Below are positions 12,097 through 17,878 of a stretch of DNA of 32,000 bases, one piece after another. Made by a program: the position numbers and the translations under genes. Positions within the stretch are counted from its first letter, which is position 1, and every line of letters begins with the position of its first letter. A model generated the notes under the pieces. The model did no database searches. It worked only from the letters and a program-made list of their open reading frames with translations, and was not told where the DNA came from. Source of the DNA: Promethearchaeota archaeon (GTDB lineage Archaea; Asgardarchaeota; Lokiarchaeia; Sigyniarchaeales; Promethearchaeaceae); the NCBI GenBank assembly GCA_016933055.1, contig JAFGBS010000004.1:300001-332000 (forward strand), given 5' to 3'.

Positions 12097-12264
12097 ATGA
12101 AAAAAATATCAGATAAAGAATATATGGAGCATCTATTACAAGATTTGAGGATAAAAGCGAGGGATGAAGATAACTTCTTAGAAAAAAAAAAACTAAAAAA
12201 GATAATCGAACAGTTTGATAGAGGAATTAAAGAGGAATACACCAAAACCCGAAATAATTCTTAA
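12097..12264 (+). CDS. Small hypothetical charged helical protein (55 aa)
   Basis: Hand translation: MKKISDKEYMEHLLQDLRIKARDEDNFLEKKKLKKIIEQFDRGIKEEYTKTRNNS. Its stop overlaps the convergent AAA ATPase stop. Below the ORF-track length cutoff. Confidence 0.35.
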   Translation: MKKISDKEYMEHLLQDLRIKARDEDNFLEKKKLKKIIEQFDRGIKEEYTKTRNNS

Positions 12265-13460
12265 GAAAATATTGCGTTTCCCTCATCCTGTTTTTTACGA
12301 ACGTTTCGGATTATTTCCAAGAGATGATGAGTTGTGATTTTTTCTATTTTCGATAACACCACATTATGAAAGGCGATTTTTATCAGTTTCTCCTTTATAT
12401 CTCTTCCAGACCATCCATCCAAGTGATTACTTACCTCTTGATAGGATATTTCATAAGGTACATCGATTTGACTCAAGAATAATTGCATCATTTGGACACG
12501 TTCAGAATTATCTGGTAATTCAAAATCAATCTCTTCTTCAAATCTACTACGCAAACCTGGGTCCAACAGATCAATGTTATTTGTTGCCGCAATGGTGATA
12601 ATCCCGCTATTCTCTGATAATCCATCCATTTCAGACAGTAGTGCCGTACTAACCTCTATTACGTCGCCTCTTACGGACTGATATGACCGACTTAATCCTA
12701 TTGCGTCGATTTCGTCTATAAATATTATTGCTGATCCTGATTTTTTAACTATTTTACGAGCTTTATCAAAAAGAGTATGGATCTTATTCGCTCCATCTCC
12801 AACATGCAATCCAATTAGTTCAGTTCCCTTTCGGACAAGTATTTGAGAACCACATTCGGATGCCAATGCTCTTGCTGTTAAAGTTTTGCCTGTACCCGGA
12901 AATCCAAAAAATAATACGTTTTTAGGAGACCATCTTCCGAATTTTTCGGGATGAAGCATAAATTCTTGGATAATCTTGCATTTTTCAATGGCTCGAGAAT
13001 TTCCTATAATATCAGCAAATCCAACTTTTTCCATACTTTTTAATTGGGAATCGACAGAAGGGACTATTTCGAATTCCGTTTCTACGGTAACACGACGAGA
13101 GGATTCTGGAATAATTTTAATTATCTTAAATGCAAAATCAGGTAATATCATCTGATCAAATAGATATTCATCCACTGCAACTATTAACCCTACCCATTGA
13201 TCTTGTGCATATGCTTGGAACAAATTATAATCATCAATTTCTAAATCTGATTGAGCAGATGCTTGTTCACTCAAACGAATAGGATAACCAACTGGCTTAA
13301 GAAGAATTTTTTGAATATTTGATTCTTGAGAAGTCTCATCCGTCTCCTGTTCTGAATCCGACTCTGTCAGCTCCTCTCCTTCAATAGTGACCTCAATCGG
13401 TTCCAATTTATTATCGGAATTAAGATAAACACGACGGTTTAATACTTTTTTCTTGGCCAT
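12261..13460 (-). CDS. Archaeal AAA+ ATPase (COG1223-like)
   Basis: PKNVLFFGFPGTGKT, GLHVGDGA, IFIDEID, ATNN, RSRFEEEIDF; N-terminal YLFDQMILPDFAFK domain. Confidence 0.85.
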   Translation of the reverse strand: MAKKKVLNRRVYLNSDNKLEPIEVTIEGEELTESDSEQETDETSQESNIQKILLKPVGYPIRLSEQASAQSDLEIDDYNLFQAYAQDQWVGLIVAVDEYLFDQMILPDFAFKIIKIIPESSRRVTVETEFEIVPSVDSQLKSMEKVGFADIIGNSRAIEKCKIIQEFMLHPEKFGRWSPKNVLFFGFPGTGKTLTARALASECGSQILVRKGTELIGLHVGDGANKIHTLFDKARKIVKKSGSAIIFIDEIDAIGLSRSYQSVRGDVIEVSTALLSEMDGLSENSGIITIAATNNIDLLDPGLRSRFEEEIDFELPDNSERVQMMQLFLSQIDVPYEISYQEVSNHLDGWSGRDIKEKLIKIAFHNVVLSKIEKITTHHLLEIIRNVRKKQDEGNAIFS

Positions 13461-13833: not shown

Positions 13834-14394
13834 CTATTTCGATTTTTTATGCGGGATATTCAAAAAATAATCCTTCCAAGCATGTACAGTCGAACTTGAA
13901 TGGGATAGTAATATTTTCTCTTCTTCTGATAGGTTTTGAGTAAGACTTAAAGTAGTATTGATTTGGGACAATGCCAGTATTTTGCTTTGCCTTAATCTGA
14001 TTAATTCTTGAGTAAAAGATATAAATTTCCGATAATTCTTGTCATCCCGTTCATTTCCGTCCGATAGGATCCCCATATATTCGGTAATTGCTGTGAATAG
14101 ATTGGGATCCAATTTTAACAGTTCTTCCGTATGAGATTGATTGAACGCTATTTTTTGAATTCTTTGCGCATTTATATGTTCTGATTCGGTAAATTGAAGG
14201 ATATTATATTTAATAAACTCTTTAGCAATCCAGTATTCCATTTTATAATGGTTTCCGGCAATAAAGGGTCCAATGATTTTTCCAAAAATTTCAATACTGT
14301 GTTTGAAGTTTTTTACCGCTTTCACCTCTATGATTTTATTGCGGAATTTATAACGAATACGTTTCAACTGTGACTGAATAGAATTCATAGACAT
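13834..14394 (-). CDS. GINS complex subunit, Gins23 type (B domain then A domain)
   Basis: IEVKAVKNF...IIGPFIAGNHYKMEYWIAKEF (B domain), then LLKLDPNLF...LIRLRQSKILALS...LSEEEK (helical A domain). Start moved to ATG 14394 (or 14388) because the 14505 start overlaps the divergent gene. Confidence 0.75.
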   Translation of the reverse strand: MSMNSIQSQLKRIRYKFRNKIIEVKAVKNFKHSIEIFGKIIGPFIAGNHYKMEYWIAKEFIKYNILQFTESEHINAQRIQKIAFNQSHTEELLKLDPNLFTAITEYMGILSDGNERDDKNYRKFISFTQELIRLRQSKILALSQINTTLSLTQNLSEEEKILLSHSSSTVHAWKDYFLNIPHKKSK

Positions 14395-14482
14395 CAATAA
14401 TGTAAGGTAATCTCTATAAAATAATAGAAGAGGAAATAAAAAAATAGATATTAAAGAATTGATAGCCTTTTTTTTTAATTGT

Positions 14483-17400
14483 ATGTCATTTTGGGACATT
14501 TTCAAGCTAAATTTCGAATGGAATTTCTATTCGATTCTATTGACTGTTGGATTCGTGCTTTCCTTTATCATTGGATATATCTTAATTTATCAGCAAATCC
14601 ACCTCGTGAAAGCAGAAACTATGTCTCTGTTGGATCATTTCAAGTGTTTGTTATATGGGATTATATTTTCCAGCGGAATTACCATAATTTTGACCACCGT
14701 GATATTATTTCGAATTAATAAGAAAAATATTCCCTTAGATACAACCACGTTAAGTCGTTTTCTGTTATGGCCGCTAAATTTTGTTATTTTTCTCTTATAT
14801 ATATTTCCATGTATTGATTTTTTGTATATGGCACATTCTGATTCGAATAAAGGAGTTACAATCTTTCAAGAATTTTTTGCTAAGAAAATCATCCATAAAT
14901 TTGAAGAACCTTGGAAGCGATCCTTAGTTGCAATCACATTATGGCTTGGATTGTTTATTTTACCTCCCCTCTTCCTATCTATGGTCATCCCTCTATATAT
15001 CGCATTCATGGGGTGGTCATTTGTCTATCCAATCATTATAATTGCATACTTTGGTTATCGAGGTTACGTAACAAGTGTGGTCAAAAATGTATATACACAT
15101 CATACAATGAGTCGCGCTCTCCATCTTGCATTCGATAAAAGTCCGCGCATCTTTCGCATATTATTTTATCGTTTTTATACCACAGTTACTCTCGTAATCC
15201 AAATTGTGACATATTTTATTATGTATCTCATTCTGATTGAGTTTATGCATTACTTTTTCGTAGGTGATGTATTGATCACCGTCAAAGGGACACCATTCCA
15301 AACTTTCGCCATTTCCTTATCTCTATTATCTGGAATAGAGGGATATTTTAGCCGATTCTGGAAAAAAAAAATAAAGTTTCGCTGGATCGATGTATTTTTA
15401 TCATCTTGGCTTATCGCAAGCGTAGGCATTAATTTATTAGTAAATTTTATGATATTACGAATTGATAATGGCATTTCTACCATATTAGAATCTTGGTCTG
15501 TAACTAACATAATAACCCAAACTACTACCATGAAAGGAGGAAATTATGTCCTTTTTATCCCAGTTGCTCTCATTGAAGAAATTATGTTTATCATCCTTGT
15601 AAATTATTATTTATTCAGTAAAAATAGCAAATTTTTTCTAGAAGCACGCCTGAATTTTATGGAATACTGCGGATCAAAATTCATTCCTGTTCCATTATTT
15701 AACTTTGTCCATCACTCAAATTCTCACCTACATAGTGCCGCTAAACAGCAATTAATACAGTTGTATGGAAGACTCCCATTGCGAAATGATCTCAAGTACA
15801 CTCATAAAAGGTATATGTATCCTTTGTTTGATGCAATTTCTGATTCGAATAAATATAATCGCGAAGTAGCCCAAATTATTTTGGAAGATGCAATTCAAAA
15901 TCACCCCATCAAAATTTCCCCTCTAATCCTTAAAGCGCTTCAATCTGGGAATGTAGATTTGCAGATTAACGTCGGAAATATCATAAAAAAGCATCCTAAA
16001 TTTATGGAATCTGTTCCCTCCTCTCTGATCACTGATTTTTTCAATCATCCCAATTATCTAATAAAACGATTAGGTGCTGATCTAGTATTAAATTTATCAC
16101 AATCGCCTAAATCGTTGAATAAAGAGACAATTTTACATGGGATCACCGATGGAGACCATATTTTTCAATGTAAATGTATGGAAATTGCTATAAAATTTGG
16201 TTTTCTGAAGGACATTAATGAATTTTTAGATAAAATGAAAAGTTCAAAATCTCGGATACAACAAATAGCAATTCAAAGTTTTATTGGATTAATAGGACAG
16301 GATAACATTACTCTATCTAATAGTGATATAGAAAAACTTTTAGACAAATTACGTATTGCAGACGGTCCATCCCGAGATGCAGCGATTATCAGTGTTTCTC
16401 AACTTAAAAATCTAACACAGTATAAAATTCCATATGAACCTTTTGTGATGGGTATTAGAAGTCATGTCCAATCTGTGCGCAAAGCTTCACAGCATGTATT
16501 ACACCAACTTCACCCAAATTTAAACAGGAATGAACAATCCAAAATATTTAATACATTTATCAAACTGGCAGAAACTGCGGATGATGAAACCATTCAACAT
16601 ATTATTCCATTACTTAATCGGAATTGGAAGCAAAACCCTCAAAAAGTCACATCAATTATCATGAAGTTTTTTAAAAGTTCCAATAATACCACTCAAAACA
16701 TAATTATTGAGGCTCTTCTTACTATTGCAGAAGAAGATCCAGAGCTTGTGCTTAATTCCATAGTTTCCATTCAAGAGGAACGTACCTATCTTACAAAAAG
16801 CGTTTTGCAGAAAACAATATTGCAAATTTGTGCACAGAATCCTCATTCTATCAAAATATTGGAAAAATTAGTAGAACAAAGTAATATGACTGTAAAAAAA
16901 AATGTATTAACTGCTATGGAGGGCTTGGCTGAACAATATGCAACTTATTTTAATAAAGATTTACTAATAAACAGTATAAAATCACAACCCTTTATGGAAA
17001 TACGCATCAAATTATTATCAGTTTTATCAAAGATTATCCATCATCATCCTGAAATTAAATCAAACACTTTAACGGAATTGTTACCGTTATTGAATAGTTC
17101 CGAAAGAGACATACGTAAACAAACTGCAAGTATTTTTTTGGAGATCGCACAAATTAAACCGTCATTAATTACCTTAGATATAATCCAGAATTTAAGCAAG
17201 GATTCAGATCCGTCTATTAGAGAACTTAGCGCAAAAATACTCCGATACTATATTTCTATCGAAAAAGAACCATCCTTGACAATTCTAGATACATTATTGG
17301 AAGATAGCAAGTGGATTGTTCAAACTGCCGCCATTGATGCTTTAATGCAAGAATGGAATTTAATGAAATCCGCTCAAATTACAAAAATCATAAATATGAT

Positions 17401-17878
17401 TGATAAATCTGATGAGTGGTTATCCCGGAAAGCCTTAGAATTTATCCAATATGTGGGTAAGCAAAATCCTGAACTAATTCCTTTACGCAAGATCACAGAA
17501 TTAACTTCTCATGCTAATCCTTATCTCCGGAGTATGATATTGAAAATCATAGAATTACTCCCCTTTGATAAAGCTTGGGAGATTTTGAAAAAATTAATGC
17601 AAGATAAAGACAGTCAAATAAGAGAACAAGCTGCAAGAAGTTTGGTAACGTTTTCTAAGGATATGACAATTTCAACCCTATTTTCCTATACTTTGCCTTA
17701 TTTTAGCGATGAAACTGATATATTCCTGCAACGAACCATCGCCAACGCATTACGACGAATTGTAAAATATGAATCTAGTGATGTAAGGAATCGTTTGATC
17801 AGTATTCTTAAAATCCGCTGTCAAGTCAGTCAAGATCCTGTATTATGCCGAATATGGCATAAACTCGAAGAAAAATAA
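14483..17878 (+). CDS. Large polytopic membrane protein with C-terminal HEAT/ARM alpha-solenoid
   Basis: About 8-9 hydrophobic segments in the first ~380 aa, then ~750 aa with repeated HEAT-like units (SERDIRKQTA, SDPSIRELSA, SKWIVQTAAI, ANPYLRSMIL, KDSQIREQAA). ATG 14483 preferred over TTG 14459. Confidence 0.8.
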   Translation: MSFWDIFKLNFEWNFYSILLTVGFVLSFIIGYILIYQQIHLVKAETMSLLDHFKCLLYGIIFSSGITIILTTVILFRINKKNIPLDTTTLSRFLLWPLNFVIFLLYIFPCIDFLYMAHSDSNKGVTIFQEFFAKKIIHKFEEPWKRSLVAITLWLGLFILPPLFLSMVIPLYIAFMGWSFVYPIIIIAYFGYRGYVTSVVKNVYTHHTMSRALHLAFDKSPRIFRILFYRFYTTVTLVIQIVTYFIMYLILIEFMHYFFVGDVLITVKGTPFQTFAISLSLLSGIEGYFSRFWKKKIKFRWIDVFLSSWLIASVGINLLVNFMILRIDNGISTILESWSVTNIITQTTTMKGGNYVLFIPVALIEEIMFIILVNYYLFSKNSKFFLEARLNFMEYCGSKFIPVPLFNFVHHSNSHLHSAAKQQLIQLYGRLPLRNDLKYTHKRYMYPLFDAISDSNKYNREVAQIILEDAIQNHPIKISPLILKALQSGNVDLQINVGNIIKKHPKFMESVPSSLITDFFNHPNYLIKRLGADLVLNLSQSPKSLNKETILHGITDGDHIFQCKCMEIAIKFGFLKDINEFLDKMKSSKSRIQQIAIQSFIGLIGQDNITLSNSDIEKLLDKLRIADGPSRDAAIISVSQLKNLTQYKIPYEPFVMGIRSHVQSVRKASQHVLHQLHPNLNRNEQSKIFNTFIKLAETADDETIQHIIPLLNRNWKQNPQKVTSIIMKFFKSSNNTTQNIIIEALLTIAEEDPELVLNSIVSIQEERTYLTKSVLQKTILQICAQNPHSIKILEKLVEQSNMTVKKNVLTAMEGLAEQYATYFNKDLLINSIKSQPFMEIRIKLLSVLSKIIHHHPEIKSNTLTELLPLLNSSERDIRKQTASIFLEIAQIKPSLITLDIIQNLSKDSDPSIRELSAKILRYYISIEKEPSLTILDTLLEDSKWIVQTAAIDALMQEWNLMKSAQITKIINMIDKSDEWLSRKALEFIQYVGKQNPELIPLRKITELTSHANPYLRSMILKIIELLPFDKAWEILKKLMQDKDSQIREQAARSLVTFSKDMTISTLFSYTLPYFSDETDIFLQRTIANALRRIVKYESSDVRNRLISILKIRCQVSQDPVLCRIWHKLEEK

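Follow-up and report, generated by a model that had tools for sequence, protein, structure and literature searches.

A predicted nine-helix membrane domain joined to a long HEAT alpha-solenoid in a protein family conserved across one order of Lokiarchaeia

Introduction

What is the role of a long HEAT scaffold that an archaeon embeds in its membrane through a polytopic domain of its own? This question is raised by a gene at positions 14,483 to 17,878 of a 32,000-nucleotide stretch of DNA from a Promethearchaeota archaeon of the class Lokiarchaeia (assembly GCA_016933055.1, contig JAFGBS010000004.1, positions 300,001 to 332,000), which was analysed as a whole and which we refer to as the window. 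Asgard archaea are being searched for proteins that could organise membranes as eukaryotic coats and adaptors do, and a long HEAT scaffold that carries its own polytopic transmembrane (TM) domain, as in the family that we call TM-HEAT, is rare. Alpha-solenoids are known to be expanded in Asgard archaea (PMC13734099). The architecture is catalogued already and the family is uncharacterised; the fusion of a membrane domain to HEAT repeats is not discussed in the main text of the asCOG paper or in that of PMC13734099, where the word "transmembrane" does not occur, and in the literature on Asgard archaea, HEAT repeats and transmembrane proteins we found nothing specific. New here are the topology, the lack of a detectable family or fold for the membrane domain, the order-wide conservation, a conserved C-terminal cap, a superfamily of paralogues and the synteny with a GINS23-like gene.

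One intact gene encodes a polytopic membrane domain and a HEAT solenoid

We found that the longest open reading frame (ORF) over the feature spans positions 14459-17878 of the forward strand and is the sole long one there, the window having been examined between 10 and 22 kb. When translation starts at the first ATG, at 14483, the product is an intact TM-HEAT protein of 1131 amino acids (aa) followed by a stop codon (14483..17878, forward strand), and its extent is supported by orthologues that span the full length and are 60-63% and 32% identical to it. The first-pass annotation, which had been made from the letters and a list of ORFs, therefore gave the exact limits of one intact gene, and the architecture that it claimed, a polytopic TM domain followed by a HEAT solenoid of about 750 residues, is borne out by Pfam, hydropathy and AlphaFold2 models.

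The N-terminal membrane domain occupies aa 1-379 (14483..15619, forward strand), and the strongly hydrophobic segments, as Kyte-Doolittle peaks, all fall within aa 12-379. The AlphaFold2 model of this domain was built from an alignment (A2) of the N-terminal 430 residues of 33 sequences from genomes of related species, and it reaches a mean predicted local distance difference test score (pLDDT) of 82.6 and a predicted template modelling score (pTM) of 0.78. It contains nine long helices (residues 15-42, 49-79, 87-118, 143-165, 171-206, 221-260, 271-292, 301-326 and 354-378), while the loops also hold short amphipathic helices. When we counted lysines and arginines in each loop from the N to the C terminus (n=33), the means alternated cleanly (0.3/4.8/0.9/4.7/0/5.6/0.5/3.9/1.7/8.5), which indicates an N-out, C-in topology and places the solenoid in the cytoplasm. 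According to this charge pattern, all long conserved loops of the domain are on the cytoplasmic side and the outer loops are short, with a mean of at most about 25 residues. AlphaFold2 and loop charges agree on nine helices, at the upper end of the eight or nine first predicted, and the TM region ends near nucleotide 15620, as first stated. A sensor of extracellular signals is unlikely because the outer loops are all short, and so is the binding of ligands from outside the cell.

The cytoplasmic HEAT alpha-solenoid follows at aa 383-1131 (15629..17875, forward strand) and comprises about 44 helices, or approximately 20-22 repeats, as judged from Pfam, the full-length AlphaFold2 model and Foldseek. 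Pfam reports HEAT_2 (PF13646) at 67.7 bits (cut-off 27.7), HEAT (PF02985) at 51.7 bits (cut-off 23.5) and Cnd1 at 27.8 bits (cut-off 26.4), and it sees them in aa ~840-1100 only. The full-length model, built from an alignment (A3) of 32 sequences, has a pLDDT of 85.2 and a pTM of 0.52; it is all-alpha, with ~44 helices running unbroken over aa 383-1130, and its helical hairpins stack into an alpha-solenoid as expected of a HEAT protein. At the membrane-proximal end, the junction (aa 381-460; 15623..15862, forward strand) provides the first HEAT-like hairpins and carries a conserved PIPLFN motif and an R.P.R...PLFD stretch in alignments A1 and A2, and aa 380-430 can be superposed on hairpins from the HEAT repeats of Pds5B, huntingtin and Kap123.

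The membrane domain matches no known family or fold

Next, we investigated whether the membrane domain belongs to a described family. Pfam and NCBIfam give no family match in the TM domain of the 1131-aa protein, and when the 33 TM-domain sequences are searched singly with Pfam, the matches are scattered, inconsistent and at E >= 0.01 (MgtE in two members, RDD, Colicin_V, Wzy_C_2). Among PDB sequences compared with the TM profile the best is a V-ATPase c subunit (E 0.25), and a feature search of the ESM Atlas with aa 1-385 returned no usable match. Foldseek against the PDB with the TM model yields no solved fold that rises above noise (E 0.05 at best, TM-score ~0.1); its top rows are armadillo proteins, matched by way of the pair of HEAT hairpins at aa 380-430. 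We find no evidence for membership in any known family, and the domain is best described as a previously undescribed one; the earlier annotation had likewise been unable to place it.

Bacterial NTT/MFS-HEAT fusions, in which a polytopic membrane domain precedes cytoplasmic HEAT repeats as it does here, offer a comparison in layout. In the MFS fold, each of two halves has six TM helices, twelve in all. The 1131-aa protein differs from these fusions in having nine predicted helices and a far longer solenoid, and no MFS_1 or TLC/NTT profile matches at E <= 1 (Pfam, NCBIfam) in this protein, in the 33 members or in a paralogue publicly labelled as MFS. No MFS chain is found among the VIA or Foldseek matches listed for the TM model either, an absence that does not exclude the fold. 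With no transporter-family match and no bacterial relatives seen (below), nothing places the protein among the NTT/MFS-HEAT fusions widespread in bacteria, the affiliation that would have refuted the earlier interpretation.

Membrane enzymes were also considered and rejected. The conserved columns lack the Cys/Arg/His set of archaeosortases and exosortases, the EExxxR/FxxxH/HxxxN set of CPBP/Rce1 proteases and the GxSG-type set of rhomboids; more generally, the Cys, His and Ser residues typical of membrane enzymes are not among the conserved TM columns of the family alignments. GT-C glycosyltransferases were rejected as well, with no GT-C chain among the structural matches listed for the TM model.

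The solenoid shows generic HEAT similarity

We compared the full-length model with the PDB using Foldseek, and the matches at probability 1.0 include CAND1 (E 1.7e-12), karyopherin-beta2 (transportin), SF3B1 and UTP-type proteins. CAND1, karyopherin-beta2 and SF3B1 (E 1e-12 to 1e-10) are solenoids of ~20 HEAT repeats like the present one, but they are soluble, eukaryotic and devoid of a membrane domain, and at 11-14% identity and TM-scores of 0.2-0.35 the repeat fold is shared and orthology is not demonstrable. The model therefore describes a genuine long HEAT solenoid with no specific kinship to one eukaryotic family. The eukaryote-like flavour of the first-pass annotation, which had invoked coat adaptors, karyopherins and PP2A, reduces to this generic HEAT similarity.

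The catalogues place the architecture closer to trafficking. In the asCOG collection, cog.002852 (class U, with an "Adaptin_N like" name) has the architecture of the 1131-aa protein, that is, the same layout of membrane domain and HEAT solenoid, and the same lineage; it is a catalogue entry without function, structure or topology, to which we link the protein by orthology and architecture. Also, an "adaptin N heat repeats domain" is counted among the trafficking eukaryotic signature proteins (ESPs) in the main text of the Ca. Lokiarchaeum ossiferum paper (PMC9834061). These names, together with Adaptin_N matches of 39-56 bits (cut-off 37 bits) in several paralogues, would fit an adaptin- or coatomer-type trafficking component, a precursor of coat adaptors that resides in the membrane and shapes or sorts it. 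We consider this quite improbable. The "Adaptin_N like" part of the name is not borne out for the 1131-aa protein, in which Adaptin_N (PF01602) has no match at E <= 1; no adaptin, COPI or coatomer chain is present among the best 50 Foldseek matches of the full-length model; and the loci examined show no appendage and no mu- or sigma-type partner genes nearby. Genuine adaptins, moreover, are soluble proteins, and it is GTPases and lipids that recruit them. One 32%-identical orthologue has a precomputed PF01602 match.

The fusion is near-universal in one order of Lokiarchaeia

We searched for relatives of the TM domain with phmmer, exhaustively over 1.84 billion representative proteins (E <= 0.001), and obtained 57, about half of which are 1100-1290 aa long, the others being shorter and mostly fragment-sized; a word-indexed search gave ten relatives, the protein itself included. 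The named relatives, publicly called "HEAT repeat domain-containing protein" or "hypothetical protein", are all from Promethearchaeota/Lokiarchaeia bar one labelled Bathyarchaeota, and no bacterial relatives were seen among the named matches. The odd one, MBD3188855.1 (1250 aa; NCBI label "Candidatus Bathyarchaeota archaeon"), lies on an 11,658-bp contig (G282:C448) assigned by GTDB to this same order of Lokiarchaeia, and its label is probably wrong.

When 400 genomes of the phylum are considered, the TM domain matches in 144, this genome included, and all are from the same order except for one weak match. Upon partitioning the order into its families, we find the domain in 142 of the 153 other genomes, with 13/13 in family f1, 1/1 in f2, 124/135 in f3 and 4/4 in f4, so that the phyletic range is order-wide. 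The matching open frames are nearly always 1100-1290 aa long, which indicates that the fusion itself is conserved, and the retention of this two-part frame of ~1100-1290 aa at 20-65% identity in more than 140 genomes argues against a chance architecture. The order includes both cultured Loki-type strains, the L. ossiferum genome carries an orthologue at about 3.4075-3.4110 Mb, and localisation and the search for partners are therefore feasible now.

With the family profile we also detect distant paralogues, in all of which a membrane domain of ~400 residues is followed by HEAT repeats. They include a 1423-aa protein in this genome, proteins with 1209 and 2037 residues in a closed genome related to it, and proteins of 1068-1087 aa in 6 of the 12 genomes of one family of a second Asgard class. 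Within TM3-TM5 the family profile finds weak but significant similarity (E 1e-8 to 1e-12), and residues P109, D/E112, P161, W178, P183, G194 and R211 are common to the wider superfamily. These paralogues share the layout of the 1131-aa protein but differ in length; neither the conserved motif of the C-terminal cap nor a neighbouring GINS23 gene is present, and in one of them another membrane domain follows at the C terminus. The 1423-aa paralogue (L060:2509-6777, at about 559.5-563.8 kb of contig 17, forward strand) has ~10 TM helices, HEAT repeats and an Adaptin_N match of 39 bits, and genes for Sir2 and two short-chain dehydrogenases flank its own. The 2037-aa paralogue (L063:969-7079, reverse strand, in the closed 4.36-Mb genome) has polytopic membrane domains at both ends with a solenoid of ~1000 aa between them. 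A further paralogue, MHA1795083.1, is publicly named "MFS transporter, partial", a name that looks wrong from its sequence, in which Pfam and NCBIfam give HEAT and TPR only and no MFS.

Conservation points to possible docking at the cytoplasmic face

We calculated the mean identity to 31 relatives in five segments of the protein. The TM domain (30%) and the junction (30.5%) are conserved about equally, the two parts of the middle solenoid reach 21% and 23%, and the last 90 residues have the highest value (35%). This best-conserved segment is the C-terminal cap (aa 1041-1131; 17603..17875, forward strand), with the motifs KYE and NRLI.ILKIRC..SQDP.LC, and columns 1104-1121 form an invariant run in nine orthologues. 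Most of the invariant or nearly invariant residues of the TM domain are Pro, Gly, Trp or Phe, and D51 and N317 also belong to this set. The segment identities suggest that the membrane domain is more than a greasy anchor and single out the cap as the foremost candidate for a site of binding or regulation.

Among the possible roles, the one we favour, and to which we would give an even chance, is that of a docking platform embedded in the membrane. The nine-helix domain would hold the solenoid of ~750 residues and ~20 repeats at the cytoplasmic face, where the solenoid would capture at least one cytoplasmic partner and keep it at the membrane, chiefly through its conserved cap and the conserved junction next to the membrane. 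The membrane domain may contribute beyond anchoring, by oligomerising, by binding lipid or a small ligand, or by adding binding surface; its conservation, as high as that of the junction, and the cytoplasmic position of all its conserved loops indicate that it does more than anchor. We infer this scaffold role from several observations that support it: the cytoplasmic solenoid combined with short outer loops, the higher identity of cap, junction and TM domain relative to the mid-solenoid, the lack of a catalytic residue signature in the TM domain, and the retention of the fusion in nearly all genomes of the order. Three further points lead in the same direction: each of the proteins most similar in structure (CAND1, karyopherin-beta2, SF3B1) serves as a scaffold that binds partners, the architecture is found again in a second Asgard class and in paralogues with lengths of 1209, 1423 and 2037 aa, and the Asgard COG entry for it is in class U. 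If a partner or an activity were found, it would give a function to a catalogued "trafficking ESP" and to a membrane domain without a known fold.

Several observations weigh against a docking platform. At a full-length pTM of 0.52, the model does not establish how the solenoid is placed relative to the membrane domain. No downstream operon partner is conserved across the orthologous loci examined, and the neighbourhoods of the paralogues have no common theme (Sir2, short-chain dehydrogenases, an aromatic lyase, a methyltransferase, DUF4332). Lastly, polar residues are conserved within the TM helices of the orthologues (Q38, D51, D112, D303, N317, N321, E365 and E366), and a pure scaffold does not need them; in family f4 and the paralogues, however, Q/R or Q/G take the place of E365/E366.

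The membrane domain could instead represent a new family of transporters, channels or lipid-handling modules, with the HEAT solenoid as its cytoplasmic regulatory or gating arm. Bacterial NTT/MFS-HEAT fusions and channels with ankyrin-repeat springs provide analogies for such an arm. This possibility is the most credible of the alternatives and still an unlikely one.

A GINS23-like gene is the recurrent divergent neighbour

We then examined the genomic neighbourhood. Immediately upstream, on the opposite strand, lies a GINS23-like gene (13834..14394, reverse strand; 186 aa from an internal ATG), whose product has a near-threshold Pfam match to Sld5 (PF05916; 20.9 bits, just below the cut-off of 22.3, E 4.4e-4) and weak PDB matches to a GINS subunit (E 0.11) and to PSF2 (E 0.14); its domain order, read from the sequence, is B then A. 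The two divergent genes are separated by an AT-rich spacer of 88 bp (14395..14482), presumed to be a shared promoter region. The GINS23-like gene is adjacent and divergent to the TM-HEAT gene in 14 of 19 orthologous loci from families f1-f3 (L031-L033, L035, L037-L039, L043-L047, L049 and L050), the L. ossiferum locus included. Supplementary file 3 of the paper on L. ossiferum (PMC9834061) lists ORTHOMCL768, the GINS23 family, directly before ORTHOMCL769, which has cog.002852 among its labels, and L. ossiferum and P. syntrophicum each have both orthogroups; this adjacency in the list fits the pairing of the two genes in the L. ossiferum genome.

The pairing may reflect co-regulation from the 88-bp spacer or merely retained gene order. 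It raises a further explanation, in which the TM-HEAT protein would tether replication or chromosome machinery to the membrane, co-regulated with the GINS23 gene through a shared divergent promoter and with a solenoid resembling the HEAT subunits of condensin and cohesin (Cnd1, Pds5). The pairing is held across three families even though the proteins are only ~25-33% identical, Cnd1 exceeds its cut-off here, and both Cnd1 and PDS5 pass in paralogues. However, the genes are divergent and form no operon, the pairing is absent from f4, the neighbours of the paralogues are unrelated, the Cnd1 and PDS5 matches are the usual cross-matches from one HEAT family to another, and gene order kept within one order can be historical, so that we assign this tether only a slim chance.

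A bolder possibility combines several of these elements. The nine-helix domain would be a new membrane fold that handles ions, lipids or small molecules around N317, N321 and E365 and is coupled mechanically or allosterically to the 20-repeat HEAT arm, making the protein a Lokiarchaeia-specific hub between membrane and cytoplasm, possibly linked to the replisome through the GINS23 pairing. We regard this as improbable, marginally less so than the tether or an adaptin-type component; if true, it would be a membrane-to-scaffold coupling of a kind not described in archaea.

Downstream of the TM-HEAT gene we find genes for triose-phosphate isomerase (TIM), CooT-like and TatD-like proteins, and the epsilon and beta subunits of carbon monoxide dehydrogenase/acetyl-CoA synthase (CODH/ACS). 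This set is kept in the same genus only, with TIM also nearby in one other genus, and inference of function from an operon was rejected because these genes are genus-restricted and the neighbours of the paralogues unrelated. A role in anti-phage defence was rejected as well, the PADLOC matches being to generic HEAT only (E 1e-6 to 1e-8). Of the four loci of family f4 that were inspected, two have a gene for an ABC ATPase close to the TM-HEAT gene. Beyond the GINS23-like gene and on the same strand as it, a PRS2-type AAA+ ATPase is encoded at 12261-13460 (reverse strand; Pfam PRS2_N, AAA and AAA_lid_PRS2_C), and it is kept in this position in the same genus only.

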